Below, one piece after another: positions 1 through 13,966 of a stretch of 20,000 nt of DNA. A program made the translations under genes and the position numbers. A model generated the notes under the pieces. That model worked only from the letters and a program-made list of their open reading frames with translations. It was not told the DNA's origin and searched no databases. Numbering within the stretch: position 1 is the first letter of the stretch; each line of letters begins with the position of its first letter. The stretch is from an uncultured virus (IMG/VR IMGVR_UViG_3300032288_005130) (lineage: Duplodnaviria; Heunggongvirae; Uroviricota; Caudoviricetes): the IMG/VR virus record IMGVR_UViG_3300032288_005130; one strand, given 5' to 3'.

Positions 1-134
1 TCACCTCTTACAGATATAATCTGTCTTTTAATTTCCTCAGTATAATCAGAGCAAACTCCTCTTGTGATTATCTCATAAAGATCAATAGGTCTTAATGATT
101 TCATTAATTTATATGTACTTACATTCCAATTCAT
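1..134 (-). CDS. Partial hypothetical protein (MNWNVSTYKLMKSLRPIDLYEIITRGVCSDY...), runs off the window
   Basis: My translation; its ATG overlaps the TGA of 131..475 (ATGA coupling) and the frame is open to base 1. Confidence 0.7.
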   Translation of the reverse strand, partial: MNWNVSTYKLMKSLRPIDLYEIITRGVCSDYTEEIKRQIISVRG

Positions 135-475
135 ATTCCTAATTGACTTAATTTTCTATCTCTAATTACTTGTTTTGTTATATCTGTTATAACTACTTGA
201 TGAAATGCACAAAAACACTCCTTGTTTGGATTAAAATCTGGATGTGAATTATTACAATCATCATATCCTGTTGAAGTCCAACCTTGTTTAGTTATCTTTT
301 TTAATTTAAGTTGAATTGGATAAAACTTCATATTAAATGATCCATTTACATAAGTAATCATATCACCATAAATATCATTAAACTCTGTAGTTATGGTATC
401 ACCTTCTCTTAACTCATATCTTGAATTACCATTCAATAAACACCAACCATCAGTCATTATTCTATACAATCTCAT
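131..475 (-). CDS. Hypothetical protein, C-tag class (...RDRKLSQLGI)
   Basis: 114 aa ORF, ATGA-coupled at both ends, shared C-terminal motif. Confidence 0.85.
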   Translation of the reverse strand: MRLYRIMTDGWCLLNGNSRYELREGDTITTEFNDIYGDMITYVNGSFNMKFYPIQLKLKKITKQGWTSTGYDDCNNSHPDFNPNKECFCAFHQVVITDITKQVIRDRKLSQLGI

Positions 476-858
476 ATTCCTAAATCATTTAACTTTTGAT
501 CTCTTAATTCTATCTTCTTTAACTCATACCAATCATTTAACATATCTCTACTCTCAACGCCACTATTAATATAAACACCTTCTCTTATATTTTTTATAAC
601 TGATTCTGGTTTATCTAACTCAAACCAACTAAGTGGAAAGTTTTTAGAAAATGACTTTTTTGTTTCCCAGTTTCTCATCACAATTCTTATATAACCACCA
701 TTTATAGCTTTATTACCAGGAATATGTTTATAGATAGTGAATATCATAGTCATATGATCATCTTCATATTGTCTTTCATCATCATCACCTGGGTTTAATA
801 TAACCATCCTCATTTGATTGACAAAATGATTATCTAATATGTCAAAAAACTTACTCAA
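472..858 (-). CDS. Hypothetical protein, C-tag class (...RDQKLNDLGI)
   Basis: 128 aa ORF in coupled run, shared C-terminal motif. Confidence 0.85.
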   Translation of the reverse strand: MSKFFDILDNHFVNQMRMVILNPGDDDERQYEDDHMTMIFTIYKHIPGNKAINGGYIRIVMRNWETKKSFSKNFPLSWFELDKPESVIKNIREGVYINSGVESRDMLNDWYELKKIELRDQKLNDLGI

Positions 859-1057
859 TTCCTAAATTCTTTAATCTTTTTTCTCTAAATTCTTCTAATG
901 TAATAAACAATCTTGTGTCAAATAACACCTTATCACCTAAATCATCTTCAATGTAATAATTGAGTTGACTTAATATCACATTAATATTTATAGTATCATA
1001 AGTCTTACCAACTGTTACTCTATTATTTCTATCAGACTTTATACAAATCACTTTCAT
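851..1057 (-). CDS. Small beta-rich (SH3-like/DUF6501-like) protein, C-tag class
   Basis: KVICI..VTVGKTY..YYIEDDLG..F pattern shared with 5 paralogs in the window; ends REKRLKNLGIE. Family name is by-eye resemblance. Confidence 0.8.
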   Translation of the reverse strand: MKVICIKSDRNNRVTVGKTYDTININVILSQLNYYIEDDLGDKVLFDTRLFITLEEFREKRLKNLGIE

Positions 1058-1084
1058 ACTTTTTAATTTATTAAAAAGAGTCTT

Positions 1085-1369
1085 TTAGACTATTCCTAAA
1101 TCATTTAGCTTTTGATCTCTTTCGGTTGATTTCAAAAATGGACATTGTTGAGGTGTTTTCTCATCAGTTAAAACAAATAAAAAGAAGGGATATCCTGTAC
1201 TATTAGTGTCTACTTCTTTACCATACATATCTAACTTCTTACAAACACTTTCATATTCTGGATTCATTCCAGATTTAAGCATTCGGTATTCATAATATTT
1301 ACAAAACATACAAGACCAATATCTTTGTTCGGGTATTACTACTTGTTGAGGTCCTTCATTTAATTCCAT
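1085..1369 (-). CDS. Cys-rich putative metal-binding protein, C-tag class
   Basis: CMFC...C...CPF; ends RDQKLNDLGIV; first gene behind a TATATTTG box. Confidence 0.8.
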   Translation of the reverse strand: MELNEGPQQVVIPEQRYWSCMFCKYYEYRMLKSGMNPEYESVCKKLDMYGKEVDTNSTGYPFFLFVLTDEKTPQQCPFLKSTERDQKLNDLGIV

Positions 1370-1373
1370 CTAA

Positions 1374-1404
1374 CAAATATAACAATTTTATTTCTGAAAT
1401 CAAA
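1374..1404 (-). promoter_or_regulatory. Bacteroidota-type primary sigma promoter (TTTG-N19-TATATTTG)
   Basis: Plus strand CAAATATA 1374-1381 and CAAA 1401-1404; matches the -33 TTTG / -7 TAnnTTTG consensus; 4 nt from the ATG at 1369. Confidence 0.75.
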
Positions 1405-1407
1405 AAT

Positions 1408-1416
1408 TAATATATA
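1408..1416 (+). promoter_or_regulatory. Putative phage (late-type) promoter motif TAATATATA
   Basis: ATATATA-N4-start geometry recurs before N-tag genes at 1421, 2332, 8272 and 13124(-). Confidence 0.5.
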
Positions 1417-1420
1417 CTAA

Positions 1421-1888: not shown

Positions 1889-1908
1889 TATAAATAACAA
1901 AATAATAT

Positions 1909-2313
1909 ATGAAACATCTAAAATCATACAAAATATTTGAATCTATACCAAAGTCAAAATTAGAATCAGATGTCAGAGACATATTCCTTGAGTTGGATGA
2001 TGAAGGTTTTGATGTTGACGTTTCATTAAGCAATCCATGGACAATTGCGATATCTAAAAAAACCATATTTAAGTGGTCAGATGTTTCTGATGTTATTGAG
2101 AGAGCTAAAGAGGTAATTGAGAATACTGGAGATTGGAAAGCAAGTGAATATTGTGTTGCTTACCATCAGAGAAGTTCCGTAATAAAGGGAACAGAATATT
2201 TCGAAAACTATGATGAGTTTATAGATTTTGTTTCAGATGATGTGATATACGGAATATATGAAATAGCTTTCATATTTGACTTAGTTAACTTTACAAAACG
2301 AAACTCTTACTAG
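1909..2313 (+). CDS. Hypothetical protein, N-tag class (MKHLKSYKIFES), DILLELxDxG family
   Basis: 134 aa; full-length paralog of 12696..13124. Confidence 0.9.
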   Translation: MKHLKSYKIFESIPKSKLESDVRDIFLELDDEGFDVDVSLSNPWTIAISKKTIFKWSDVSDVIERAKEVIENTGDWKASEYCVAYHQRSSVIKGTEYFENYDEFIDFVSDDVIYGIYEIAFIFDLVNFTKRNSY

Positions 2314-2331
2314 AAAACCAATATATACAAA

Positions 2332-2889
2332 GTGAAACATCTAAAATCATATAAAATATTTGAATCCTCTGAAGATCTAAAGTATAGTGATAGAGATATC
2401 ACTAATAAATATTATTGTGCTTTAGGTTGGGTTAGATATACCGATGCTCATAAAGATTCTTATATTGATATTGAAAAGTATTTTGACATAGAATGGGACC
2501 ATATAGGATGGATATTGGAAGATTTTGTTACTAAGTGTGATTTACTTTATAGTTGTTCAGTTCGTGATAGGAGAGGTATGTTTTTATCTCACGAAGATTC
2601 AGATGGTGTTGCTGATAGTATAACAATTGATTTTACACCTGAGAAATTTGATAGAGTTGGTGGTCATAAAGGTGTGAATTTTAGAAAGCATCTTAGTAGA
2701 TTCACACATTTTCCACCAAGAAAAGGAGATGAGTTAATATCATTATTAAGAGGTATTGAAGATAAGTTGGAAGAGAGTTTTCCTTATTTAACAATAGTAG
2801 ATGAGGAGAATGTTGAAGATGAAGGTTTAAATAAGTGGAATCTATTTATAACATCATCTCAGATAACATTAAAGATTAAAAGAAAATGA
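2332..2889 (+). CDS. Hypothetical protein, N-tag class (GTG start, KHLKSYKIFES)
   Basis: 185 aa; tag DNA nearly identical to 1909 and 2886; CAATATATA 4 nt upstream. Confidence 0.85.
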   Translation: MKHLKSYKIFESSEDLKYSDRDITNKYYCALGWVRYTDAHKDSYIDIEKYFDIEWDHIGWILEDFVTKCDLLYSCSVRDRRGMFLSHEDSDGVADSITIDFTPEKFDRVGGHKGVNFRKHLSRFTHFPPRKGDELISLLRGIEDKLEESFPYLTIVDEENVEDEGLNKWNLFITSSQITLKIKRK

Positions 2890-3344
2890 AACATCTAAAA
2901 TCATATAAAATATTTGAATCTATTGATATTCTTAATGATATCAGAGATATTCTAAAAGAATTAGAAGATATAGGTTATTCTACTTATGTTCAATGGACAC
3001 CACTGACAATTGCTGGATATCCAAGGAAAAAAGAAATAATGATTCAGATAAATAAAATGAAGAAGAAGTCATTTATAGTGAGTGAAGAAGATTTAGAAAC
3101 AATAATATTAACATTTGAACATTTAGATAGTTTTTTAAGTGATTCAAAATTTAAAATAAAAAGCTTCTTCTTTGATAATTCTTCATATAATCTTCTTACT
3201 AATTCAATCACTGAAGGTAAATCATTTAGAGAAATATTTACAAATTTTTATAAAGAATACAAAGATTCTCACAGCTATTTTATACTTCCAGAAAGTTTAG
3301 GTGATATAGGAGATTACATACAATTAATATTAGTAGAAAAATGA
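2886..3344 (+). CDS. Hypothetical protein, N-tag class, DILLELxDxG family
   Basis: 152 aa; MKHLKSYKIFES then DIRDILKELEDIGY. Confidence 0.85.
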   Translation: MKHLKSYKIFESIDILNDIRDILKELEDIGYSTYVQWTPLTIAGYPRKKEIMIQINKMKKKSFIVSEEDLETIILTFEHLDSFLSDSKFKIKSFFFDNSSYNLLTNSITEGKSFREIFTNFYKEYKDSHSYFILPESLGDIGDYIQLILVEK

Positions 3345-3796
3345 GATACTTAAAAACATATAAAATATTTGAATCTATCGAAGATGGCTTAGATAAAGAA
3401 GACACTAAAAATGTATTTGAGTCATATATCAATTGGAATATGATACATAATTTGAAAGATATAGCACTAGAGTATTTAGATAATGGTTTGACCCTAATTG
3501 TTAGAATTAGATATAATGACGAGGCATATCATAAAGAAAAATACACAAATATTATTTATACCATATGTTTTAAGCATGAATGTGATGTTTCTACATTTTC
3601 TACTCCATCATTCAATATTTATAACTTAGAACCTATTGATAAGAGTCGTATTCAATATCACATTTTTATTGTTAATAAAGATGTTGATACTATGAAAAAA
3701 GAAACTTCTGAAGTTATTGAAATTTTAGGTGACATGTACCCTGAAATTAAAAATAATCTATTTCCAGTAATAAAACCAGAAACATTGAAGAAATGA
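3341..3796 (+). CDS. Hypothetical protein, N-tag class (MRYLKTYKIFES)
   Basis: 151 aa; diverged LKDIALEYLDNG motif; ATGA coupling. Confidence 0.85.
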   Translation: MRYLKTYKIFESIEDGLDKEDTKNVFESYINWNMIHNLKDIALEYLDNGLTLIVRIRYNDEAYHKEKYTNIIYTICFKHECDVSTFSTPSFNIYNLEPIDKSRIQYHIFIVNKDVDTMKKETSEVIEILGDMYPEIKNNLFPVIKPETLKK

Positions 3797-4566
3797 AACA
3801 TATAAAACCATATAAAATATTTGAATCAAACGACTTACTTTTAGATGTTGAAGATATTCTTTTAGAACTAAAAGATGAAGGATATAGAGTAGATGTAAGC
3901 ATGACACCTCAAGGTGTTGATGCCTTTTATATAGAAGTATCAAATGATAATCTATTTCAATGGTCGGATGTTGAAGAATGTGTTACAAGATCAAAAGATT
4001 ACACTTGTTCAAACGGTTGGAAATTAGTAAAAATTAATCTCGGTTTCTATGGACCAGTTGTTAGAATTAAAGAGTTTATGACCTTTTCTGGTTCAAATTG
4101 GAATTACTTTATACACTATATAACTCATCCAGAATTCATTAAGAATAATAAGATATATGAGATATCTTTAGTATTTGAATCAAATAAACATGTTATGAAG
4201 TTACCAAACTGGGCTAAAACATTTGAATCAAATGACAATTTCCTACTAGATTGTCAAGATATTCTTTTAGAACTAAAAGATAACGGATTTGATGTCCAAT
4301 TTAGATTCTATCCTAATTATAATAATCCTGAGGCTGAACTACTAGCCGAAATAAACATCTCTAAAAGAGATGAATCTAATATGAATAAACCATATAACTT
4401 CGAAGAAATAAGCGAATCAATCTTTAGATTAAATGACTTTCTTAAATTAAATAACAAAAAAGCAACTATATATGAAAGTCCTCAATATAACGATCTAGAT
4501 TATATAGTAAAAACTTGGGGTAAATACTATAGACTAAAAAGATTAACTATCTACTTAGAGCAATAA
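3793..4566 (+). CDS. Two-domain N-tag protein (tandem DILLELKDxG units)
   Basis: 257 aa; FESNDLLLDVEDILLELKDEG and FESNDNFLLDCQDILLELKDNG. Confidence 0.9.
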   Translation: MKHIKPYKIFESNDLLLDVEDILLELKDEGYRVDVSMTPQGVDAFYIEVSNDNLFQWSDVEECVTRSKDYTCSNGWKLVKINLGFYGPVVRIKEFMTFSGSNWNYFIHYITHPEFIKNNKIYEISLVFESNKHVMKLPNWAKTFESNDNFLLDCQDILLELKDNGFDVQFRFYPNYNNPEAELLAEINISKRDESNMNKPYNFEEISESIFRLNDFLKLNNKKATIYESPQYNDLDYIVKTWGKYYRLKRLTIYLEQ

Positions 4567-4944
4567 CTTTTCCAACTTCATATCTCTCAACTCTTCCTTA
4601 ATAGGAAGGACATTGAGAGCATGTCTATTATCAAATACATAACCCTCAGTCCGACCAGGATAACTAACAAAAATCTCATCATCACTCTTAATTCTAACCA
4701 TATAATGACCCATATCACGAACATGTTCAATTATAGTCCAAATATCATCACCATAGGTATGAACATCATTTTCTGGGTAATTAGATCTAATATTAACCTT
4801 ATGAACCTTCATACCAATAGGATACCACTTCTTCAATAATTCCAATTGAAAATCAATAGGAGTATAATTAAACCTCTTTTTCTCCAACATAGTGTGATTA
4901 AAGTAATCCCACTTTTTTAAATATTTCTTACCAAAAGTACTCAT
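4555..4944 (-). CDS. Hypothetical protein, C-tag class (...RDMKLEKLLL)
   Basis: 129 aa; last gene of a 13-gene minus-strand run. Confidence 0.8.
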   Translation of the reverse strand: MSTFGKKYLKKWDYFNHTMLEKKRFNYTPIDFQLELLKKWYPIGMKVHKVNIRSNYPENDVHTYGDDIWTIIEHVRDMGHYMVRIKSDDEIFVSYPGRTEGYVFDNRHALNVLPIKEELRDMKLEKLLL

Positions 4945-5180
4945 TCTAATATCTTACCTAAATTATGATCTCTCATAACAACTTTTAATTCATCCAATAT
5001 TAACTTAACATGTGAACCATTGCCACCTGAATAACCATTATAGTATTCAGGAACATTTATATCCCAGGTTTTAATAATATTCCATATCGCTTCAAACTGA
5101 GGAGAAGCCATTTCTTCAGGAGTTGGATTAGGCATCTCCTTTTTTAGGACATTCCAACCTAATCTACTAATTTTCGCCAT
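4941..5180 (-). CDS. Hypothetical protein, C-tag class (...RDHNLGKILE)
   Basis: 79 aa coupled ORF. Confidence 0.8.
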   Translation of the reverse strand: MAKISRLGWNVLKKEMPNPTPEEMASPQFEAIWNIIKTWDINVPEYYNGYSGGNGSHVKLILDELKVVMRDHNLGKILE

Positions 5181-5400
5181 CTTCTAATATCTCATTTAAT
5201 TGTTTTTCACGCCATTCTTCCAATGTAACAAATCTACCGACTGAATAATCTCTAATAACACCATCATCACAAGTAATGGTATATTGGGCAGCGGGACCAC
5301 CTGAAGTTTCATAAACTTTACCAATAGTAAGACCTAGTTTAATTGGGTCTATTAAATCACCTGATCTTTTTAAATTATTATCTATACAAACTATCTTCAT
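5167..5400 (-). CDS. SH3-like/DUF6501-like small protein, C-tag class
   Basis: KIVCI..LTIGKVYE..YTITCDDG..FVTLEEWREKQLNEIL. Confidence 0.85.
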   Translation of the reverse strand: MKIVCIDNNLKRSGDLIDPIKLGLTIGKVYETSGGPAAQYTITCDDGVIRDYSVGRFVTLEEWREKQLNEILEDGEN

Positions 5401-5708
5401 TATATTCCTAATTCTTTTAATTTTTTATCTCTTAGTTCTTGTTTTGTTAGTTGAAATTCTGACCAACCAGAATCATATCTTTTTAAATCATAACCTAAAT
5501 TTTTATAATAAGTCATAGAATGAACAGGAATAAAATGAATATTATTGAGTTGTTTATAATAACACCTCGAACATATTCTAACATTCCTGAGTAATGTATT
5601 TTCAACACCATTTGGTGTCGATTTAGTTACACTACCAGAAATTATATAAGTAACATCCTCTACAGAATATTCCCACTTATGTCCAAATACCTTACACTTA
5701 AAACTCAT
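5400..5708 (-). CDS. Putative Zn-binding protein (DUF1660-like CKxFGHKW...CxxC), C-tag class
   Basis: MSFKCKVFGHKW...RICSRC; ends RDKKLKELGI. Confidence 0.85.
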   Translation of the reverse strand: MSFKCKVFGHKWEYSVEDVTYIISGSVTKSTPNGVENTLLRNVRICSRCYYKQLNNIHFIPVHSMTYYKNLGYDLKRYDSGWSEFQLTKQELRDKKLKELGI

Positions 5709-5944
5709 ATTCCTAATTCCGCTAATTTCTTATTCCTTAACTCTTCTTGTGTGATAAAGAACTCAGAATCAAACTTTCTTAATTTACCATCATTACAAAT
5801 AACAATATATGATGGTGGTACAGGTAGATAAGTATTTGGATCATACATAGTAGGAGTTAAATCTCCTTCATACCAATTATTTAATGTTAGACATTCATCA
5901 TTCTGCCAATAATACGGCATTGGTTTAATTAATAAAATTTTCAT
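5705..5944 (-). CDS. SH3-like small protein, C-tag class
   Basis: LTLNNWYE..YIVICNDG..FFITQEELRNKKLAELGI. Confidence 0.85.
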   Translation of the reverse strand: MKILLIKPMPYYWQNDECLTLNNWYEGDLTPTMYDPNTYLPVPPSYIVICNDGKLRKFDSEFFITQEELRNKKLAELGI

Positions 5945-6204
5945 ATTCCTAATTCCGATAATTTCTTATCTCTTAACTCTTCTGTACTTAAAACATATTC
6001 ACACCAGTCAGTTTTTTCTCTACCAGTATAATGGTCTCTTATCTGTTTATAATAACACCTACTACAAATTCTAAAATCTTTTTTATACATCACAGTAAAT
6101 CCTGGTATAGACATATGACTATTACTAGTGGCAGGTATCATATATGAAATATCTTCCTTATAAACATTCCACTTATGTCCAAATATCTTACACTTAAAAC
6201 TCAT
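5941..6204 (-). CDS. Putative Zn-binding protein (DUF1660-like), C-tag class
   Basis: MSFKCKIFGHKW...RICSRCYYKQ; paralog of 5400..5708. Confidence 0.85.
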   Translation of the reverse strand: MSFKCKIFGHKWNVYKEDISYMIPATSNSHMSIPGFTVMYKKDFRICSRCYYKQIRDHYTGREKTDWCEYVLSTEELRDKKLSELGI

Positions 6205-6425
6205 ATTCCTAAACTTATTAACTTTTCTTCTCTTACCGAAGATAAGGATTTAAAACATTGCTTTGGGTATTTAGTTAAATCATTATTATCATTAATTATT
6301 TGATATTCAGGTAGACTCAGATAAACATCCTCTCCTAATACCTCATACCATTTACCTATAGTTATAAACCCATAACTATGATTACTCATAGTTGGATCAT
6401 TAACACTTATACAAATAATTTTCAT
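6201..6425 (-). CDS. SH3-like/DUF6501-like small protein, C-tag class
   Basis: KIICI..ITIGKWYEV..YQIINDN..F; ends REEKLISLGI. Confidence 0.85.
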   Translation of the reverse strand: MKIICISVNDPTMSNHSYGFITIGKWYEVLGEDVYLSLPEYQIINDNNDLTKYPKQCFKSLSSVREEKLISLGI

Positions 6426-6430
6426 TTCAA

Positions 6431-6655
6431 TTATATACCCAATTCCTCTAATTTAATATCTCTCCAATCTTCTAATGTGTAAAAACTAGAATCCTGATGC
6501 CAACATTCAGTACCAAAATCATCTATTATTTGATATTCTATAGCAGGTTTTGTATCACCACCAGTTGACTCAACAAACCAAGCATTCCTAGTATTAATAA
6601 CACTATATAACTTACCTTGTGTTAAAAATAAAGCACCTTTACCAACCACTATCAT
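6431..6655 (-). CDS. SH3-like/DUF6501-like small protein, C-tag class
   Basis: LTQGKLYSV..YQIIDDFG..FYTLEDWRDIKLEELGI. Confidence 0.85.
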   Translation of the reverse strand: MIVVGKGALFLTQGKLYSVINTRNAWFVESTGGDTKPAIEYQIIDDFGTECWHQDSSFYTLEDWRDIKLEELGI

Positions 6656-6885
6656 ATACCCAATTGCTTTAACTTCCTATCCCTTAACTCTTCCTTTGAT
6701 AACTTATCCCAATCTGCCCAGCCATTACCATTATTATATCTTTGTTTCTTATGACAATTTTGACATATTCTAACATGTGTATTTATAGTAATTTTTGTAC
6801 CAATACTACTTATCCAATGGATATCTTCCTTACTCCAATCCCAATCATGTTGATTAAATAAACATTTAAAACTTGACCAATTCAT
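6652..6885 (-). CDS. Putative Zn-binding protein (DUF1660-like), C-tag class
   Basis: FKCLFNQHDW...RICQNC; ends RDRKLKQLGI. Confidence 0.85.
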   Translation of the reverse strand: MNWSSFKCLFNQHDWDWSKEDIHWISSIGTKITINTHVRICQNCHKKQRYNNGNGWADWDKLSKEELRDRKLKQLGI

Positions 6886-7223
6886 ATACCTAACACCTTA
6901 TTAATTTTCTTTTCCCTCCATAACGCCTTATCTATTACAACATCTTTCTTTATATCATTTACCCAATCCTCAAAACTAATAGAAAAAGATAAACTATAGA
7001 AATTTCTATACTTAACACTACTCCAATTAGAATATAAAGCTTCTTTTTGTTTTAATGTAACACAATCCCACCAATCTTTACCTACAATAAGGCAAATAGC
7101 TTCTGAAAATTTCTTTAATTCTCTTTCTCTTTCTCTTCTCCGCTTACGCTCAGAATCTGGTTGATCTAACTTATCAATCTGCTTATTCCAAGAATTAATT
7201 GTTCTTCTATCTTTATACTTCAT
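6882..7223 (-). CDS. Hypothetical basic helical protein, C-tag class
   Basis: 113 aa; ends REKKINKVLGI. Confidence 0.8.
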   Translation of the reverse strand: MKYKDRRTINSWNKQIDKLDQPDSERKRRRERERELKKFSEAICLIVGKDWWDCVTLKQKEALYSNWSSVKYRNFYSLSFSISFEDWVNDIKKDVVIDKALWREKKINKVLGI

Positions 7224-7225
7224 AA

Positions 7226-7756
7226 CTAACTCAATAAGGATTTCAACGCAGCATCCCTTATCTCTGCCTTTAATCCACCAAGTGGAACATTTATATTAAT
7301 ACCTTCACCTTTAATAATCATTTTTACCGTCTTTTTGGTATACTTACCAAAAATAGTTGCTTTATATAAATTACACTGAAAACCAGCAGTAATTAGATTA
7401 GTAGCAACTGATGAACTATCAGTAACAATCACAACATACTTATCACCATCTATATCGGATTTTAATTTACCACCACCATTTTTATACTCTCTTAGTAAGG
7501 TATTAATATTAGAAGTACTTCTAGATGTAATTGAATATTCACCTGAATCAAAACATGATTTTAATTCTTCTAACACATCCCAAGTAGAATATTCACCACA
7601 TTTGACTACATTGATAACCCCTTTTCTAAATCCAAGTGGATTAGTTTGCTGTGTGCTAAGATAAAGTTCTTTGGCTAAATTTGATATAAGTAACCAATCA
7701 GGACTTTCTTTAAGTAATTCAGTTGATATTATTTCTTTGCTCATATTCATTCCCAT
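7226..7756 (-). CDS. Hypothetical protein, C-tag class (...RDAALKSLLS)
   Basis: 176 aa; three candidate Met starts (MGMNM). Confidence 0.8.
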   Translation of the reverse strand: MGMNMSKEIISTELLKESPDWLLISNLAKELYLSTQQTNPLGFRKGVINVVKCGEYSTWDVLEELKSCFDSGEYSITSRSTSNINTLLREYKNGGGKLKSDIDGDKYVVIVTDSSSVATNLITAGFQCNLYKATIFGKYTKKTVKMIIKGEGININVPLGGLKAEIRDAALKSLLS

Positions 7757-7962
7757 ATTTGTTCAATTTTTCTTGCTCTTTCCTCATCAATTGGATAAAA
7801 CTTATCTTTAGTGTACCAAAAGTTTTGACCATTATCATTAATTATCCTATACCCAACATTGTCAATCTCAGTAACCCTATATGACTTATCTGGAGTTATA
7901 CTCTTTGACATAATAGATATGTTATCCAAGATATCATAATTTTTTTTACACCTAACTATCAT
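7747..7962 (-). CDS. SH3-like/DUF6501-like small protein, degenerate C-tag
   Basis: IVRC..ITPDKSYRV..YRIINDNG..F; ends RARKIEQIWE. Confidence 0.8.
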   Translation of the reverse strand: MIVRCKKNYDILDNISIMSKSITPDKSYRVTEIDNVGYRIINDNGQNFWYTKDKFYPIDEERARKIEQIWE

Positions 7963-8240
7963 ATTCCTAATTCTTTTAATTTCTTTTGCCTAACTAGTAT
8001 CAAATATTCTGACCAATCAATTACAACCGTAGCAGCTTTAATACTATTACTCTGATCACCAAACATAGTTAAATTATTCTTATACCTAACATCCCACATA
8101 TCATAATAAACTAAAATATTGCCATCATCAGTATTAACACCTTTAATCTTAATATCATATACAATATCATCAAAAATATCATTTTGCTTAAACAAAACAA
8201 TATCCCTAATCAATTCCCAATCTAACTCTTTTAGATCCAT
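7959..8240 (-). CDS. Hypothetical protein, C-tag class; start revised to MDLKEL (93 aa)
   Basis: TATATTTG box at 8246-8253 lies inside the longer ORF call, 5 nt before the ATG at 8240; ends RQKKLKELGI. Confidence 0.8.
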   Translation of the reverse strand: MDLKELDWELIRDIVLFKQNDIFDDIVYDIKIKGVNTDDGNILVYYDMWDVRYKNNLTMFGDQSNSIKAATVVIDWSEYLILVRQKKLKELGI

Positions 8241-8245
8241 GTTTA

Positions 8246-8267
8246 CAAATATACAAAATAATATATA
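8246..8267. promoter_or_regulatory. Back-to-back promoter motifs: TATATTTG (minus, 8246-8253) and TAATATATA (plus, 8259-8267)
   Basis: 31-bp divergent gap between ATGs at 8240 and 8272; same architecture as 1370-1420. Confidence 0.65.
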
Positions 8268-8271
8268 CATT

Positions 8272-9159
8272 ATGAAATATTTAAAACAATTTCAAATATT
8301 TGAAAGTAAATCCGATCTAATAGATACCTATCTATCAAAGTTAGGCACAACTAAACAAGATGTAATAGATATCTTCCAAGGAATTATTGACTTAGGATAT
8401 GAACCTAAATTCACTTTACAATATATTGATAAAGATGGTAGAAAAAGAGATGAGAAATCAACCTCACAAGAAACACCAATAGTAATTATCGACTTTGTAT
8501 CAAATCATGAAAAGTATATCGGTGGATCAATCAAATTTAATAACCTAGATTATATAGAAAACCTTTATCATAACTTATCTATGTTTATGTCTATGTTTAA
8601 AGATAAATGCCATATTACATATGAATTAGATAATATGATTGAACTTAAACTTAAACTACAGTTTGAAACAGAATACGATCAATCTAAATTAAATATTTCT
8701 ATAACTGATTTACAATCAGCTTTAGAATCCAGTATGTCTTTGGTACCTAATGAATATTTAAGTGAAATAGTGGATGAATTATTATTAGTAATTAAACCAC
8801 AATCTTCATTAGTAGGTAAAAGATTATTCAATGAAATAATCAAAACAAAAGAAGATAGAATTAGTAATAAAGATGAATTATATGAAATTTCAAAAAATAT
8901 CAATCAATCAATCGCTAAAAAATTATCAGATAAATTTAAAAAAGATATTAGATATGAAGTAGTTAAGGGAAGTTACTTTGATAAAAAAGGAACAGGACTT
9001 TATTTATTTGAAGGTAATGAAAAAGAAATGATTTGTAGAATACAAAACCTTTTCAACGAACATAAAAAATACGATGGTAACATTAAAACAGGATTCTTGA
9101 AAACAAAAGAAGTAAGTGTAGATTTAGAATACTTAGAAATTAAATTATCAATGACATAA
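8272..9159 (+). CDS. Hypothetical protein, N-tag class; start revised to MKYLKQFQIFES (295 aa)
   Basis: Tag begins at Met52 of the 8119 ORF; the upstream part is antisense overlap with 7959..8240. Confidence 0.85.
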   Translation: MKYLKQFQIFESKSDLIDTYLSKLGTTKQDVIDIFQGIIDLGYEPKFTLQYIDKDGRKRDEKSTSQETPIVIIDFVSNHEKYIGGSIKFNNLDYIENLYHNLSMFMSMFKDKCHITYELDNMIELKLKLQFETEYDQSKLNISITDLQSALESSMSLVPNEYLSEIVDELLLVIKPQSSLVGKRLFNEIIKTKEDRISNKDELYEISKNINQSIAKKLSDKFKKDIRYEVVKGSYFDKKGTGLYLFEGNEKEMICRIQNLFNEHKKYDGNIKTGFLKTKEVSVDLEYLEIKLSMT

Positions 9160-9704
9160 TGAAATACTTAGAAAAATTTAAATCATTTGAGAAAATGAAA
9201 TATTTAAAGTCATATAAAATATTTGAAAATCAAAACTACAAAGGAGTTGCTGAGTATTTAGATACTATCTTAACACCCTTGGTAGATATTAATTTTGATT
9301 ATAAGATTGAAGTTTATAATACCAAATTCTCAGATAGTGAGTTTCTAATAAGACAGGGACATGAAAAGTTTATTAATTCAATTTCAGATAAGACAGATTT
9401 TAAAAGTATTTCAATTGAGATAGTCAAAAAAGGAGAGTGGTGGAAAAAAGATTTAGATACCGTAACCGAAGTTATATTAAGCTCAGCTTTATACTTAAAG
9501 ACTTTAGGATTTTTACCGAAAGCAACAGCCATTAACTTTTCAGACCTTATTAAAACAGAGTATATTGATAAATTAAATGAACTAGAAGAACTATTCAAAA
9601 ACTCAGGAACAGGAGTCGGAGTAAGTGATGTATTTGGAAATAACATACACAAGACATCCGGAGTTGATGATCAATATGAATATGAAATTAGATTTACAAA
9701 ATGA
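9159..9704 (+). CDS. Hypothetical protein with a doubled N-tag
   Basis: MKYLEKFKSFEK-MKYLKSYKIFEN; 181 aa. Confidence 0.85.
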   Translation: MKYLEKFKSFEKMKYLKSYKIFENQNYKGVAEYLDTILTPLVDINFDYKIEVYNTKFSDSEFLIRQGHEKFINSISDKTDFKSISIEIVKKGEWWKKDLDTVTEVILSSALYLKTLGFLPKATAINFSDLIKTEYIDKLNELEELFKNSGTGVGVSDVFGNNIHKTSGVDDQYEYEIRFTK

Positions 9705-9714
9705 AATATAAAAT

Positions 9715-10074
9715 ATGAAACATCTGAAAAAATACAACCATATTACCAAAAAAGATATAGAAAACTACTTTGCTCACTCATTTGACCTATCAGATAGCTT
9801 CGAAATAAGCGAAGCTTATTTTAATCCAAATGATACAAGAGACTGGGCAAGTAACGACTTTAGTAATGAAGAAAGTGAAAATCATCCCAATTTTTGCTTA
9901 AAAGGATTTCAAATATCAATAAACAATAACATATATGAACTAAAAGATTTCACTAAGTATGTTGAACTAATTAACCAAATATCAGAAGATATAAACAGAT
10001 TTAAACAAATAGAAAAGCCCAAAGATATTTTCTTTGACTCAAATGATCCTCTAATTATAATAATAGCTATCTAA
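9715..10074 (+). CDS. Hypothetical protein, degenerate N-tag (MKHLKKYN)
   Basis: 119 aa acidic protein. Confidence 0.8.
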   Translation: MKHLKKYNHITKKDIENYFAHSFDLSDSFEISEAYFNPNDTRDWASNDFSNEESENHPNFCLKGFQISINNNIYELKDFTKYVELINQISEDINRFKQIEKPKDIFFDSNDPLIIIIAI

Positions 10075-10077: not shown

Positions 10078-10683
10078 CTACCCAAATAACACCAACAAAC
10101 ACCCAATTGTTATCAATATGAAATTATACTTCATATGCAAAGATGTCGCATGAAGTAATGCCACCTCAGACCCAAACTTCTTAAATGACCTAACATACCT
10201 AACAGAGAAAATAAAACCCGTAATACATAACAACATCGCCACAAATAAGGGTATTCCCATCACCATATGAACCATACCAAATATAATAGATTTCTTAATC
10301 CTAGCACCAATATCAATAACTCCCTCCCTAAATATCACTTCTTCTATCTTAGCTAAATAAGGTATACTAAAAACCATTAAGATCCAAAATACTAAAACAA
10401 TAGGAGTAAATCCACTAGTCATAGGCGATGTTACTAAATTCTGAGACTGACCATCAGATATAAAACTAATCCAAGAAAACTTTAACCAAGCAGGCGGTTC
10501 TAAATAAAGAATAAACACAACAGATAAAGAAACACCAATAAATAATAAGAAAGACCATAAGTAATCCCAATAATTACTGAAATATAACTTTAATAAAGAC
10601 CTATCTTTCCTAAACATCTTAAAAGCATCCCTTATTGCCATTATTGCTAATAAATACCCAATTACCTTTATTACTATTCCCAT
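10078..10683 (-). CDS. CPBP/Abi (CAAX protease-like) intramembrane glutamic endopeptidase
   Basis: Multiple hydrophobic segments; EEVIFR (EExxxR), FGMVH (FxxxH) and HMKYN (HxxxN) motifs. Confidence 0.85.
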   Translation of the reverse strand: MGIVIKVIGYLLAIMAIRDAFKMFRKDRSLLKLYFSNYWDYLWSFLLFIGVSLSVVFILYLEPPAWLKFSWISFISDGQSQNLVTSPMTSGFTPIVLVFWILMVFSIPYLAKIEEVIFREGVIDIGARIKKSIIFGMVHMVMGIPLFVAMLLCITGFIFSVRYVRSFKKFGSEVALLHATSLHMKYNFILITIGCLLVLFG

Positions 10684-10762: not shown

Positions 10763-10793
10763 CAAATATAAAAACAAATTCCGATATAAACAA
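10763..10793 (-). promoter_or_regulatory. Bacteroidota-type promoter for the CPBP gene
   Basis: CAAATATA 10763-10770 (minus TATATTTG) with TTG 20 nt upstream. Confidence 0.55.
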
Positions 10794-10803: not shown

Positions 10804-11058
10804 ATGATTAACCTAAAAACTATAAAAGATATCAAAGACTCAGAAGAAGGCCAACTACTCCTAATGGCAATCGCCATACTAACATCCATAAAACCAGAAG
10901 ATATCAAATCAGATAAATGGGGCGGCATGGTACACCCAGATGACGCATTAGAAAGAATACAAGACCTAGCCAACAAAATCTACTATGAAGAAGAATGGAA
11001 AGGGGAACAAATCAAAATAATGAGAGATAATAAACTAAATAAAATTATTAATGATTAA
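10804..11058 (+). CDS. Hypothetical protein, C-tag class (...RDNKLNKIIND)
   Basis: 84 aa. Confidence 0.8.
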   Translation: MINLKTIKDIKDSEEGQLLLMAIAILTSIKPEDIKSDKWGGMVHPDDALERIQDLANKIYYEEEWKGEQIKIMRDNKLNKIIND

Positions 11059-11290
11059 AGAAGACCTAACTAAAATCTATAAAGGGAGATTTGCCATAAA
11101 TACAACATATAGTCCAGACTCACTAAAACCACAATTCCATATAATAGATAAACTAACAAATAAAAAAGTAATAATAGAAATATCTGATATAGATAACTTT
11201 ACCGATGAATCTATCTACAACATACTAAAAGAAACAATAGATAATATGATATCAGAAAATAGAAATAATAAAATCAATTCAATACTCTAA
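11051..11290 (+). CDS. Hypothetical protein, C-tag class (...RNNKINSIL)
   Basis: 79 aa coupled ORF. Confidence 0.8.
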   Translation: MIKEDLTKIYKGRFAINTTYSPDSLKPQFHIIDKLTNKKVIIEISDIDNFTDESIYNILKETIDNMISENRNNKINSIL

Positions 11291-11484
11291 TGAATATAGA
11301 AGTAGTAGCCTATAATAAAGTCCTATTCAAAGACCAAATACTAAAAGTAACACCAGAAGTAATTCAAGATGCACACCACGGAATATCTATAACAGAAGAA
11401 CAATTCATACAATACATAACAGATATCTATAATAAACAAATACACATAATCAGAAATAATAAACTAAAACAATTAGGAATATGA
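11290..11484 (+). CDS. Hypothetical protein, C-tag class (...RNNKLKQLGI)
   Basis: 64 aa coupled ORF. Confidence 0.8.
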   Translation: MNIEVVAYNKVLFKDQILKVTPEVIQDAHHGISITEEQFIQYITDIYNKQIHIIRNNKLKQLGI

Positions 11485-11612
11485 TAACATCTAAAGAATA
11501 TAAATACAGTTATTATATATGTATTAAACACGGAACATCATCAAAAACTAAATTAAATTGCAATGGGTGTAGAAAAGATAAAATAAAGAGATTATTTCTT
11601 CTTAAATTCTAA
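11481..11612 (+). CDS. 43-aa putative Zn-binding microprotein, C-tag-like (absent from ORF track)
   Basis: MITSKEYKYSYYICIKHGTSSKTKLNCNGCRKDKIKRLFLLKF; ATGA-coupled; CxxH...CxxC. Confidence 0.6.
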   Translation: MITSKEYKYSYYICIKHGTSSKTKLNCNGCRKDKIKRLFLLKF

Positions 11613-12101
11613 ATACATAAAATTAATATAATAGTTATTCTTTATAGAATTTAATAACTCACCCTTACTTATAGGATGCTCTGGTGTCTGAAAATCCTCC
11701 TGAACTCCCTCCCCTCCACACTTACCACAAATCCACATATTAATATCCTTATCATCATTCCTTTCAGTAAACCAAACATTCCTACTGTCACAACTAGGAC
11801 ACCTTTCATAATAATCCCAATTCTCATTCTCATAGAATGAATCCTCACCTAAAACATATCCCTGAGACTCTAAATATGAAAAGAGATGCTCTATAATATG
11901 ACCAATTGATCTTAATTTAAGCTCAGATTTATAACTAGATAAAATTACAACTATACTAGTGAACTTCGTGAACTCAGTACCATCACCCTTTAATTCAACA
12001 TCATACCCAACTCCATCATCACTTAACTCAATTAAAATATCTTTAATATAATCTACAAAGATATGAGATTCAAATATTTTGTATTTCTCTAAATGTTTCA
12101 T
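11592..12101 (-). CDS. N-tag protein, DILLELxDxG family with Zn-ribbon insertion
   Basis: MKHLEKYKIFES; IKDILIELSDDG; CPSC...CGKC. Confidence 0.85.
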   Translation of the reverse strand: MKHLEKYKIFESHIFVDYIKDILIELSDDGVGYDVELKGDGTEFTKFTSIVVILSSYKSELKLRSIGHIIEHLFSYLESQGYVLGEDSFYENENWDYYERCPSCDSRNVWFTERNDDKDINMWICGKCGGEGVQEDFQTPEHPISKGELLNSIKNNYYINFMYLEFKKK

Positions 12102-12102
12102 A

Positions 12103-12360
12103 CTAATATAAACTATCTTTATACTCCATTAAGAACTCTATTATCCTCTCTATCTCATCCGGAGTATCAATAATAACACCACCCTCATTTGTTTGAAATT
12201 TAATAGACATCTCACCTTCAACATCTTTATAGTTCCATTGCTTTTTAATAACAGATATCTCTAAAGATGGAGAAGATATAGGAGAAGAATATGGATTATT
12301 ACCACTTATTCTAACTTTAGGAGTTTCTAAAGATTCATTGTACTTTCTTAAATGTTTCAT
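12103..12360 (-). CDS. Hypothetical protein, N-tag class (MKHLRKYNES)
   Basis: 85 aa. Confidence 0.8.
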   Translation of the reverse strand: MKHLRKYNESLETPKVRISGNNPYSSPISSPSLEISVIKKQWNYKDVEGEMSIKFQTNEGGVIIDTPDEIERIIEFLMEYKDSLY

Positions 12361-12363
12361 ATA

Positions 12364-12672
12364 TTATTTCTTTATTTTTATGAATCTAGGATCATTCTCT
12401 AATGAACCAAATTCTGCCTTCCACTTATCCCTTACCACCTCATCCGAGAAAAGAACTCCATCTTTATAAAAAACAATAGCTCCTCCATTCTCTATGTATA
12501 TCTTACAAGGAATAGGGAAAACATTTCTTAAACCAGTAGTTGTCTTAAACCCAGAGTCTATCTCATCTGAATAAACTTCATATCCCTTAATTACTCCTGA
12601 ATATTCACCTTCAGGCCAGTTATCCAATGTATAATTTGATTTTGATTCGTTATATGTTTTTAAGTGTTTCAT
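12364..12672 (-). CDS. Hypothetical protein, N-tag class (MKHLKTYNES)
   Basis: 102 aa. Confidence 0.8.
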   Translation of the reverse strand: MKHLKTYNESKSNYTLDNWPEGEYSGVIKGYEVYSDEIDSGFKTTTGLRNVFPIPCKIYIENGGAIVFYKDGVLFSDEVVRDKWKAEFGSLENDPRFIKIKK

Positions 12673-12695
12673 ATTTTTTATATTATTTTTTTATA

Positions 12696-13124
12696 TTATT
12701 TAACCAAATCAAATATGATAGATATCTCATATATATCCTCTCTATCTAATGAAACAAAATCTATGAATTTCTCATAGTTATCGAAATATAATCTAAAGTT
12801 TTCTCCAATATCATTTTCAAAAACAACACAACACTTATCAAGTTTCCATCTACCCGAACTTTCAATATAGTCTTTAGCCCTTTCAAATGTATCAGAAACA
12901 TCAGACCAATTAAATAGCTTTATTCTAGTAACCTGAAGAATCCACATATCTAAACCCTGCGGACTTACAACAACATCAACACTGAATCCCTCATCACCCA
13001 ATTCAAGAAACATATCCTGAACATCTAATTCTAATCTAGAATCAGAATATTCAGATACCTCATACATAGTAGTGAACTTAGTTAACTCAGTATCGAAGAA
13101 AGTATATGGTTTTAAGTATTTCAT
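12696..13124 (-). CDS. N-tag protein (MKYLKPY), DILLELxDxG family
   Basis: Paralog of 1909..2313 (WSDVSD..ERAK, FIDFVS, IYEI..IFDLV). Confidence 0.9.
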   Translation of the reverse strand: MKYLKPYTFFDTELTKFTTMYEVSEYSDSRLELDVQDMFLELGDEGFSVDVVVSPQGLDMWILQVTRIKLFNWSDVSDTFERAKDYIESSGRWKLDKCCVVFENDIGENFRLYFDNYEKFIDFVSLDREDIYEISIIFDLVK

Positions 13125-13160
13125 AAATTATATATAAAAAGAGAGAGTTAAAAAATTTTC

Positions 13161-13550
13161 CTAATTAAAATGTAACTCAAAAAAAGTTATAACACCCTCG
13201 GCTCCAAAGTTAGTTGGATTCATAACTGATGTAGTTTTAATAATAGGTCTTTGTTCTGATCTTTCCTTTGGACTCATCCAATCAATCTTTAATCCATATT
13301 CTGATAAGAATAATTTTAATCTTTCAACCACATCTTCTATATCAGAATAATCAAACTCTTCTTTTTTACTAAAGAAAAATTGAATCCAATTCTTATTATG
13401 TTCTTTACCTATACTAACACCAGTATTGAAATAAGAACTAATTTTAGTTGTAAAACCATTATCCTCTAACTCTAAAAGAATATCCTTACATTCATTTATA
13501 ACTGACTGGTCTATATTTTCATTAAACCTTCTTAAATATTTCATACTCAT
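13161..13550 (-). CDS. N-tag protein (MKYLRRFNEN), DILLELxDxG family
   Basis: CKDILLELEDNGF...IEDVVERLKLFL; start may be 13544. Confidence 0.85.
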   Translation of the reverse strand: MSMKYLRRFNENIDQSVINECKDILLELEDNGFTTKISSYFNTGVSIGKEHNKNWIQFFFSKKEEFDYSDIEDVVERLKLFLSEYGLKIDWMSPKERSEQRPIIKTTSVMNPTNFGAEGVITFFELHFN

Positions 13551-13568
13551 AATTAATTTTTTGTATCT

Positions 13569-13611
13569 TATATATTAATTTATAACATTAGAATTATTAT
13601 TTGTATATTTG
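13569..13611. promoter_or_regulatory. Back-to-back promoter motifs: TAATATATA (minus, 13569-13577) and TATATTTG (plus, 13604-13611)
   Basis: Third copy of the divergent architecture, in mirror orientation. Confidence 0.65.
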
Positions 13612-13615
13612 TTAT

Positions 13616-13966
13616 ATGAATTATTTAAAACATATATTTTATTACACCTTCTATAAGAACTATAGAATACTTATTTCTAATACTTGGGTATTTACATGTT
13701 TCGAATATTCAGGAATATTATTTAAGACTATCTATGATTCGTTGGATGGTGAGTATTCATTTATTGTTTTAGAAGATTCTGATTCTTCTTCTTCTTCATA
13801 TAAAGGATCCTTTTCTGAGATAATAACTAATCAAGATAATCATATTGTTCGTAGAGATGTAAGTAAAGATGTTTCACAATTCTTTATTATGTATCATAAA
13901 GATAAATTAATTCTGGATAAATTATCATATCAGAGAGATAAGAAGTTAAAAGAATTGGGAATATAG
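13616..13966 (+). CDS. Hypothetical protein, C-tag class; start revised to MNYLKH (116 aa)
   Basis: ATG 4 nt after TATATTTG; ends RDKKLKELGI. Confidence 0.8.
   Translation: MNYLKHIFYYTFYKNYRILISNTWVFTCFEYSGILFKTIYDSLDGEYSFIVLEDSDSSSSSYKGSFSEIITNQDNHIVRRDVSKDVSQFFIMYHKDKLILDKLSYQRDKKLKELGI

Follow-up and report, generated by a model that had tools for sequence, protein, structure and literature searches.

Two mutually exclusive terminal peptides on the small proteins of an uncultured phage and their association with two promoter motifs

A 20,000-nucleotide stretch of DNA from an uncultured virus of the Caudoviricetes (IMG/VR record IMGVR_UViG_3300032288_005130), referred to in its full length as the window, encodes many small proteins, and nearly all of those encoded between positions 131 and 13966 begin or end in one of two ways. 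Some start with a MKHLKSYKIFES-like peptide (the N-tag), and others finish with an RDxKLxxLGI-like peptide (the C-tag). This raises the question of what keeps these two short sequences on so many proteins, and why they do not occur together. As described below, both are retained as peptides on unrelated proteins, and each is associated with its own promoter motif; from these properties a possible role is proposed for each of the tags.

Distribution of the two tags in the window and in related genomes

The window has a G+C content of 25-32% and is dense with small open reading frames (ORFs). Unless stated otherwise, block and tag counts refer to positions 131-13966. According to the ORF translations of this range, the N-tag is present on 14 ORFs and the C-tag on 22, of which 18 are clear, scoring at least 10 bits on a position matrix built from the strict matches, and four are degenerate (7226-7756, 7747-7962, 11051-11290 and 11481-11612, with scores from -6.7 to 4.8 bits). 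No ORF carries both tags (Fisher exact p of 2.5e-9 with 22 C-tagged ORFs, or 2.4e-6 with 18), and a membrane protein is the sole ORF with neither. Outside this range, the C-tag of ORF 17927-18478 is clear (17.3 bits) and that of ORF 17234-17620 is weak (7.9 bits). The tagged ORFs are arranged as follows.

131-1369, minus strand: C-tag block 1, four small ORFs (131-475, 472-858, 851-1057, 1085-1369), C-tag scores 18.7-22.7 bits
1421-4566, plus strand: N-tag block 1, six MKHLKSYKIFES-like starts (ORFs 1421-1888, 1909-2313, 2332-2889 with a GTG start, 2886-3344, 3341-3796, 3793-4566)
1909-1944, plus strand: representative N-tag coding stretch, 12 codons, MKHLKSYKIFES
4555-8240, minus strand: C-tag block 2, thirteen small ORFs
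5400-5441, minus strand: representative C-tag stretch, the last 13 codons and the stop of ORF 5400-5708, ending in ...QELRDKKLKELGI
8272-10074, plus strand: N-tag block 2, three ORFs (8272-9159, 9159/9195-9704, 9715-10074)
10078-10683, minus strand: untagged polytopic membrane protein, with a TATATTTG box upstream at 10763-10770 (minus strand)
10804-11612, plus strand: C-tag block 3, four ORFs, two with clear tags (10804-11058, 11290-11484) and two with degenerate tags
11592-13550, minus strand: N-tag block 3, five ORFs (11592-12101, 12103-12360, 12364-12672, 12696-13124, 13161-13544/13550), including the tag variant MKHLxxYNES
13616-13966, plus strand: single C-tag ORF ending in QRDKKLKELGI, followed by TAG
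17927-18478, minus strand: C-tag ORF of the IL variant, ending in ...LRDFNLDEILK, with a homolog (43% identity) in the genome LR756502.1 described below

The original prediction, made from the sequence of the window, had stated that nearly every ORF of this range is tagged, that none carries a clear copy of both tags and that the two classes form alternating blocks on opposite strands; all of this is borne out by the present analysis.

The N-tag has the consensus M-K-H/Y-L-K-x-Y/F-(x-x)-F/N-E-S and is 8-12 residues long, and the extended consensus of the C-tag, of 13-17 residues, is (S/T)-x-E-E-L/W-R-D-x-K-L-x-x-L-G-I. The ORFs of C-tag block 1 end in RDxKLxxLGI(x) and are linked by stop/start overlaps. 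Most ORFs of C-tag block 2 end in RDKKLxELGI, followed by an ATGA or a TAATG junction, and the bodies in this block include zinc-ribbon proteins with a DUF1660-like N-terminus and small beta-rich proteins. ORF 13616-13966 keeps its C-tag without a stop/start overlap and with no gene start close downstream. In N-tag block 1, the ORFs at 2886, 3341 and 3793 start by ATGA overlap, without a promoter of their own. A tandem double N-tag, with its copies 12 residues apart, opens ORF 9159-9704, and ORF 3793-4566 joins two units of a single family, and its internal tag is decayed (…AKTFESNDNFLLD…).

Two uncultured huge phages, LR756502.1 (642 kb) and LR745206.1 (635 kb), are the only members of the phage collection that match the N-tag proteins or the bare N-tag; no match for the C-tag was found in this collection. 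About 20 of the window ORFs have homologs in LR756502.1, with sequence identities of 26-59%, and the window is considered to be part of a huge Bacteroidota phage that is a distant relative of LR756502.1. The 642-kb genome has been described as complete and circular, belongs to the 'Mahaphage' clade and is predicted to replicate in Bacteroidetes (PMC7162821). DNA patterns derived from the tags detect 30 loci (N-tag) and 12 loci (C-tag) in IMG/VR, on contigs of 10-476 kb with G+C contents from 25% to 47%. The genome-scale statements below rest on these relatives, namely on LR756502.1 and on the contigs G001 (476 kb) and G005 (344 kb, 37% G+C).

The census of LR756502.1 covers the whole genome, with 975 ORFs defined by a greedy longest-ORF rule and their termini scored on position matrices with a threshold of 10 bits. 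This score is reached by 117 of the 975 N-termini, as compared with 3 of 3399 internal Met positions, and by 146 of the 975 C-termini, as compared with 12 of 11534 internal windows. The number of ORFs with both tags is zero, as compared with 17.5 under independence. This exclusion is also seen in G001 (49 N-tagged and 79 C-tagged of 641 ORFs, none with both) and in G005 (25 N-tagged and 92 C-tagged of 505 ORFs, none with both). A second common form of the C-tag in LR756502.1 is ...RDxKLxxILx.

After trimming of the tags, the 117 N-tagged bodies of LR756502.1 fall into 100 BLAST clusters and the 146 C-tagged bodies into 142. The known domains are assorted, being HNH, SET, GNAT, PQ-loop and DUF6576 for the N-tag ORFs (6 of 117) and riboflavin kinase, DUF6011 and BtpA for the C-tag ORFs (3 of 145 scanned). 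Since the bodies are unrelated and the domains are of various kinds, both tags are portable peptides and not the conserved ends of one family, which agrees with the earlier suggestion that they are appended to interchangeable payloads. The SET-domain protein, GNAT acetyltransferase, HNH endonuclease and PQ-loop membrane protein with an N-tag are encoded at L048:24271-24714(+), L054:15891-16307(-), L043:11122-11700(+) and L045:22630-23244(+). In the riboflavin kinase of LR756502.1 (L045:4926-5570(-)) the Flavokinase domain covers residues 2-128, and this domain is followed by an 85-residue extension that ends in the C-tag. The median isoelectric point of the N-tag bodies is 5.1 versus 6.0; no conclusion was drawn from this difference.

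Several other features of the tagged ORFs were noted. Six of the window N-tag ORFs are paralogs of one another and have a further motif, DILLELxDxGF, in the folded body. This motif was considered as a part of the tag and rejected, as the pattern occurs in only 3 of the 117 N-tag ORFs of LR756502.1 and is therefore a feature of the paralog family. The C-tag ORFs 5400-5708, 5941-6204 and 6652-6885 form a zinc-ribbon-like family (conserved C5, H10, W12, C47 and C50), the first 15 residues of which match the Pfam family DUF1660 (prophage protein). Searches of the 51 window ORFs against Pfam and PHROGs gave almost nothing else, the notable matches being the DUF1660-like one (two C-tag ORFs) and phrog_1250 (one untagged ORF); no Pfam family was found on the window N-tag ORFs. 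A homolog search with one N-tag protein returned only six unnamed metagenome proteins, a search with the C-tag tail only the self-match, and the ESM Atlas only unnamed viral clusters. The untagged 55-residue ORF 16743-16910 (minus strand), located behind TATATTTG, is identical in its first five residues to the T4 internal proteins IPII and IPIII, probably by chance.

Two promoter motifs and the codons of the tags

The two kinds of blocks meet in three divergent junctions, each with TATATTTG on the C-tag side and AATATATA on the N-tag side, as had been predicted originally.

1370-1420, both strands, 51 nt: divergent junction 1, TATATTTG at 1374-1381 (minus strand), 4 nt before the ATG at 1369, and AATATATA at 1409-1416 (plus strand), 4 nt before the ATG at 1421
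8241-8271, both strands, 31 nt: divergent junction 2, TATATTTG at 8246-8253 (minus strand), 5 nt before the ATG at 8240, and AATATATA at 8260-8267 (plus strand), 4 nt before the ATG at 8272
13551-13615, both strands: divergent junction 3, AATATATA at 13569-13576 (minus strand), 18 or 24 nt before the start at 13550/13544, and TATATTTG at 13604-13611 (plus strand), 4 nt before the ATG at 13616

In the window there are nine copies of TATATTTG where 3.9 are expected, a number that was reached in 2 of 200 shuffles. The five copies of AATATATA (9.6 expected) do not exceed expectation, so that only their position is informative; four of the five are located just upstream of N-tag genes.

The C-side motif TATATTTG matches the -7 box of the Bacteroidetes sigma-A consensus, TAHHTTTG (also given as TAnnTTTG), for which the transcript start is found 4-5 nt downstream (PMC6847099). 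It is a sound inference from this match that the C-side genes are transcribed by the host polymerase. At all three C-block heads of the window the distance from the box to the ATG is 4-5 nt, and 27 genes of LR756502.1 have a -7 box that is spaced 3-6 nt from the start. Because this spacing equals the reported distance between box and transcript start, the transcripts of the early operon heads are probably leaderless, starting at or beside the ATG. With AATATATA also found at such distances, the position of both promoter classes 4-7 nt from the start codon implies leaderless mRNAs for the early operon heads and for many late genes. In Flavobacterium, leaders of more than 10 nt are reported for 87% of the predicted transcripts of genes with a probable promoter (PMC6847099).

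The upstream distances of AATATATA in LR756502.1 are concentrated sharply at 4-7 nt from the ATG (111 genes), and a further peak is found at 18-27 nt. The motif heads tail fibre, baseplate hub, endolysin, portal, terminase, capsid and protease genes, and AATATATA units hold all 11 annotated structural and lysis genes versus 3 of 15 replication genes (p of 4.9e-5). The sharing of AATATATA between the N-tag genes and these 11 genes provides good support for assigning the N-tag promoter class to the late genes. Nine of the 15 annotated replication and nucleotide-metabolism genes are behind neither motif (for example 116029-117207 and 253958-255391), which suggests that LR756502.1 has a third, middle promoter class.

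The association between tag and promoter class was evaluated by labelling each unit by its nearest upstream box (E for TAHHTTTG, L for AATATATA), which is a simple heuristic that leaves many genes unassigned. In LR756502.1 the E units contain 52 C-tag and no N-tag genes, and the L units 17 C-tag and 113 N-tag genes (Fisher p of 4.7e-31). The corresponding numbers are 55 and 4 (E) and 4 and 42 (L) in G001 (p of 5e-20) and 33 and 1 (E) and 10 and 23 (L) in G005 (p of 3e-9), and in the window five C-tag genes are found in E units and five N-tag genes in L units, with none in the reverse combinations. The original prediction had tied the tags to the promoter class, with the C class being transcribed by the host polymerase and the N class being late, and these assignments are in agreement with the statistics of the three related genomes and with the identity of the two motifs. 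The C-tag operons of LR756502.1 cluster on both sides of the coordinate origin (600-642 kb on the minus strand and 0-10 kb on the plus strand) and are transcribed outward; 44 C-tag ORFs are located within 600-640 kb, such that in the circular genome there is one large divergent early region.

Both tags are retained as peptides. Their codons were compared for 92 non-redundant C-tags and 213 N-tags. The invariant Arg of the C-tag is encoded by AGA (68), AGG (16), CGT (6), CGA (1) and CGC (1), near background, and six codons are used for Leu and four for Gly. The Glu, Phe and Ser codons of the N-tag are at background, with Ser encoded by six codons, and His and Tyr are split over both of their codons. 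Superimposed on this, A-ending codons are favoured at four N-tag positions (AAA, TTA, ACA and ATA), and the last two codons of the C-tag are skewed (GGA 60 versus 30.7 expected, ATA 65 versus 36.5 expected). Of the 92 C-tag ends, 51 form an ATGA overlap, and 26 lack any start codon in their vicinity. Where the overlap is ATGA, the usual C-tag codons result in A at -3, -6, -12 and -13 of the next start, and A at these positions is a positive initiation determinant in Flavobacterium (PMC6847099). This secondary pull to A-rich codons suits initiation in a Shine-Dalgarno-free host.

It could be argued from these data that the tags are by-products of initiation signals, being the 5' ends of leaderless late mRNAs and the signals for the following, overlapping cistron in a host that initiates without Shine-Dalgarno sequences, with the peptides themselves idle. 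Such an explanation would account for the placement of both tags exactly at the sites of initiation signals, for the spacing of 4-7 nt between both promoter motifs and the ATG, for the enrichment of A-ending codons in both tags (GGA and ATA in the C-tag), and for the A residues and ATGA overlaps at the C-tag ends. It leaves unexplained that the most conserved residues use near-background synonymous codons (Arg AGA/CGT, Ser TCN/AGY), that the C-tag is present where no start codon is near (ORF 13616-13966 being an example), and that 54 of the 117 N-tag genes of LR756502.1 are internal cistrons without a promoter of their own, as are those at 2886, 3341 and 3793 of the window. In addition, 143 of the 206 genes headed by the late motif in LR756502.1, including the tail fibre and baseplate hub genes, have no N-tag, which is therefore not needed for late leaderless expression, and the tags persist at the amino-acid level over the whole G+C range of the contigs given above. 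The explanation by initiation signals is for these reasons regarded as quite improbable.

Another way in which the same short sequence could appear on many genes is recombination, with the tags being joints for the shuffling of small-gene cassettes, similar to the PeSLs, that are kept alike by gene conversion. PeSL shuffling has been documented in T4-type phages (PMC2839356). The tandem arrays of unrelated small genes with common ends would fit such a process, as would the double tag of ORF 9159-9704, the two-unit fusion of ORF 3793-4566 and the neighbouring N-tags at 1909, 2332 and 2886, which are near-identical in DNA sequence over 36 nt and are followed by bodies that differ. Against this, the codon identity of near pairs of tags is barely above that of far pairs, both in LR756502.1 (N-tag 0.68 versus 0.60, C-tag 0.62 versus 0.57) and in G001 (N-tag 0.71 versus 0.67, C-tag 0.57 versus 0.56), and the conserved unit is coding and not intergenic. 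The link to the promoter class and the mutual exclusion of the tags would also not be explained. A PeSL-type cassette was rejected as a candidate, as there are 89 sigma-70-type promoter sites where 107.8 are expected, the six terminator-like hairpins are all inside genes, and near and far codon identities are similar. Recombination may spread the tags but does not explain their retention, and as a full explanation it is considered to be highly unlikely.

Proposed roles of the two tags

The reading that is preferred here, with a probability of roughly one half for the whole of it, is that the two tags are portable addresses, with the C-tag helix docking early proteins and the N-tag targeting late proteins to the capsid. 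The C-tag class would consist of early proteins, with genes in TATATTTG-headed operons, and the C-tag helix would be a docking peptide for one common host or phage partner, by which the early proteins would be localised, assembled or later removed. The N-tag would be a disordered, Glu-terminated propeptide that works like the capsid-targeting sequence of T4, bringing late-made cargo into a T4-type prohead core. A gp21-type prohead protease would cut the N-tag off after the conserved Glu, and the cargo would be packaged together with the DNA for delivery into the next cell. The tags would be exclusive since the two fates exclude each other, a protein being made either to act in the current cell or to be packed for the next one. 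The original prediction had suggested a docking, degradation or localisation helix for the early proteins and a virion-packaging signal for the late ones; this suggestion is plausible, for packaging by analogy with T4, and is now better grounded as regards timing. By analogy, the N-tag half of this proposal may be the principle of T4 capsid targeting in a much enlarged form, in a lineage of huge Bacteroidota phages. The proposal in its widest form, that of a proteome-wide two-address code with a dedicated reader of the early C-helix, a capsid-loaded and injected arsenal of N-tagged proteins, and coupling of timing, fate and tag, is put forward tentatively, as a possibility that may well not hold.

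The predicted structure of the N-tag proteins is consistent with a removable peptide. The AlphaFold2 model of ORF 1909-2313 (calculated with 15 aligned sequences) has an alpha/beta body, residues 15-128, with a pLDDT of about 90, and the tag (residues 1-12) has a pLDDT below 50 and is read as disordered. Linkers of variable length separate the N-tag from the bodies. Foldseek searches with the model of an N-tag protein against the PDB and BFVD gave nothing at E values of 0.001 or lower, the best matches being generic alpha/beta folds. In LR756502.1, Glu is present at tag position 8, 9 or 11 in 106 of the 117 N-tags and is directly followed by Ser in 48; the residue two positions before this Glu is Ile or Leu in 51 and Tyr or Phe in 39 of the tags. 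T4 gp21 and its relatives in giant phages cleave on the C-terminal side of Glu in short motifs (L/I-x-E in T4), and the scaffold is cut into small pieces (PMC9026906).

The head module of the relatives is of the T4 type, with matches to Portal_T4 (1e-57), Gp23 (4e-28) and the head maturation protease phrog_207 (6e-28). Gp23 is of full length in G001 and in the further contigs G002 and G004, and fragmentary in G003. The co-occurrence of the N-tag with a Gp23-type capsid gene was dropped as a discriminator, as G005 has N-tags without a PF07068 match. The protease of G001 (L106:377-2539) has 720 residues, of which residues 287-447 form 12 tandem repeats with an exact period of 14 residues, YSEY[LI]AENLDKNIx; 11 of these have [LI]-A-E and one has I-V-E, and I-I-E is present at residues 6-8 of the protease's own N-terminus. 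As judged from its sequence, the head maturation protease looks like a protease-scaffold fusion that is made for cutting into 14-mers. This fusion, with a length of 699-720 residues in the homologs (including L107:745-2883(-) and L108:645-2744(-)), has an N-terminal protease domain, the repeats, an acidic His-rich stretch and a C-terminal domain. A conserved N-tag gene is located directly upstream of the portal gene (222007-222480 in LR756502.1, 53888-54361 in G001). Its protein has at least three paralogs (G001 373324-377454), with the motif STYxxAAxKLxxxGH just after the tag.

Alternatively, the N-tag could be a late docking peptide that is not removed and that does not lead to the interior of the capsid, its target being a virion surface or tail site, or an assembly chaperone. 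The late promoter class is also compatible with this explanation, and N-tag genes are found beside tail genes in LR756502.1, two of them directly upstream of the tail sheath gene; moreover, the residue two positions before the Glu fits the T4 rule in under half of the tags. Against this, the near-invariant Glu-Ser (with the Glu in 106 of 117 tags) and the scaffold with its [LI]-x-E repeats fit a processing site, and the tag is disordered and set apart from the bodies by variable linkers. A docking peptide that is not removed is therefore viewed as unlikely.

We take the C-tag to be an amphipathic helix that starts with an N-cap box and is capped by Gly at its C-terminal end, with the last Ile folding back. 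In the AlphaFold2 model of ORF 5941-6204, a paralog of ORF 5400-5708, residues 74-84 form a terminal helix, this being a low-confidence model (pLDDT of 68). A search of the PDB with the C-tag sequence found only designed ideal-helix repeat proteins, with an E value of 0.47 that is not significant, and a search of the PDB with the C-tag family profile found nothing. The C-tagged bodies are small (median of 111 residues) and orphan. Taken together, the small and unrelated bodies, the host-promoter class, the fixed Arg and Asp/Asn and the absence of the N-tag from the same proteins suggest that the C-tag is recognised by one common partner.

The same structural features would also be expected if the C-tag has no external reader and is a generic stabilising or self-associating helix, by which small new proteins fold, oligomerise and escape C-terminal proteolysis. 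The tag has the textbook properties of a helix that forms autonomously, its caps being S/T-x-x-E (N-cap) and Gly (C-cap), the designed ideal-helix repeats mentioned above are its only (not significant) look-alikes in the PDB, and the bodies are tiny and orphan. A stabiliser, however, needs no Arg and Asp/Asn that are invariant in position, and it would be neither restricted to one temporal class nor excluded from the N-tagged proteins, which are of similar size. The C-tag is also present on a full-size enzyme, riboflavin kinase. It is thus improbable that a generic helix accounts for the C-tag.

A number of points weigh against the preferred reading, that of a docking C-tag and a capsid-targeting N-tag. 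The functions proposed for both tags are derived by analogy. As concerns the C-tag, no candidate reader emerged, and 0-5 extra residues may follow the tag, which speaks against a free carboxyl end being recognised. The conservation of the terminal Gly-Ile partly serves the translation of the next gene, as follows from the skew towards GGA and ATA and from the ATGA overlaps in 51 of the 92 tags. As concerns the N-tag, the residue two positions before the Glu is Ile or Leu in under half of the tags, and the N-tag matrix gives the N-termini of T4 IPI, IPII and IPIII scores from -10.4 to -13.4 bits. A PQ-loop membrane protein is among the N-tagged proteins, and a number of more than 100 packaged proteins per genome would be several-fold above that of the phage heads described in the available parts of the cited literature. 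There are no head genes in the window, in G005 the N-tags occur without a PF07068 match, and the Peptidase_S77 match of the protease has a score of 20.2 bits versus a Pfam cut-off of 27. The assignment to promoter units has exceptions as well, namely the 17 C-tag genes in L units of LR756502.1 and the 4 N-tag genes in E units of G001.

The tags provide a handle on about a quarter of the huge-phage proteome (263 of 975 ORFs in LR756502.1, 128 of 641 in G001 and 117 of 505 in G005), and the genes of huge phages are mostly of unknown function. Together with the two promoter motifs, they allow the temporal class to be read from the metagenomic sequences of uncultured phages. If the N-tag is a packaging signal, then the list of injected proteins, including SET, GNAT and HNH enzymes, would extend far beyond that of any model phage, and the N-tag would be a ready-made tag for loading foreign proteins into Bacteroidota phages; with capsid targeting, the SET, GNAT, HNH and PQ-loop proteins would be candidate injected host-modifying proteins. 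If the C-tag has a reader, this reader would be a central hub of host takeover, obtainable with a 15-residue peptide. In case the two-address code is true, phage proteins of unknown function could be sorted by their sequence alone into those that act now and those that act in the next cell.

Comparison with known systems

The original prediction had stated that no described system is known with such an organisation. For the N-tag this does not stand, in view of the T4 precedent; for the C-tag and for the pairing it does, as a literature search, which did not cover the supplements of PMC7162821, found no description of the C-tag or of a pairing of two tags with two promoters. The tags are not mentioned in the available part of PMC7162821.

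The internal proteins of T4 have N-terminal capsid-targeting sequences of 10-19 residues, in which residues 4 and 7 are important for targeting and residues 8 and 10 direct processing (PMC9026906), and the internal proteins found in T-even phages form a very varied group with only the capsid-targeting sequence in common (PMC3012670). The N-tag is similar to the gp21-removed sequences of IPI, IPII, IPIII and Alt in being a short N-terminal peptide with a Glu end on unrelated proteins. It also shares its promoter motif with head genes, and a portal, a gp23-type capsid protein and a gp21-like protease are present in the relatives. In the T4 genome (AF158101), IPII and IPIII have an MK start, Tyr4 and Phe7, and a peptide that ends in I-A-E; the N-tag has in common with them only the MK start, an aromatic pair at a distance of three residues and the terminal Glu. 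In the N-tag the aromatic pair is preceded by one to two more residues, Tyr or Phe is frequent two positions before the Glu, and there are about 49-117 N-tagged proteins per genome (G001, LR756502.1) versus the four that are named for T4 in the available text of the cited sources. From these sequence comparisons the resemblance is considered to be one of design and not of alignable homology. Packaging and cleavage of the N-tagged proteins are predicted by analogy with T4.

The propeptides of phiKZ, 201phi2-1 and SPN3US, which are cut at S/A-x-E, are also found in giant phages with many head-internal proteins, and there are again paralog families with conserved N-termini and a gp21-related protease that cuts after Glu (PMC5694885). 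These propeptides differ in being mostly longer than 100 residues; the hosts are Proteobacteria, and the available portion of the source describes neither a single shared short tag nor an early-class counterpart tag (PMC5694885).

The MuF polymorphic toxins, such as Bxa and Apk2, have a conserved N-terminal module, for which a role in directing variable C-terminal payloads to the capsid has been hypothesised (PMC11699363). MuF is a folded domain and a minor capsid component, whereas the N-tag is a 12-residue disordered peptide. A capsid-targeted toxin of the MuF type was rejected as a candidate, as no MuF or toxin family is found on the N-tag ORFs, neither in the window nor among those of LR756502.1, where 6 of 117 have domains.

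The promoters of the C-tag operons are like those of Bacteroidota sigma-A, with TATATTTG fitting the consensus and the distance to the ATG being equal to the reported 4-5 nt between box and transcript start (PMC6847099). The difference is that the operon heads look leaderless here, as seen from the DNA sequence, whereas leaders longer than 10 nt are predominant in Flavobacterium (PMC6847099).

The PeSLs are similar to the tags in being short, conserved and repeated, and in flanking many small non-essential genes of hyperplastic regions (PMC2839356). They are, however, intergenic promoter-plus-terminator DNA, whereas the tags are coding, are selected as peptides and have no excess DNA identity.

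Degrons of the ssrA type are short C-terminal peptide signals that are read by one receptor. The C-tag is similar to these signals in that many unrelated proteins share one short peptide at the C-terminus, which would imply a single reader. It differs from them in being a predicted capped amphipathic helix that tolerates 0-5 trailing residues and that is found on phage early proteins only.

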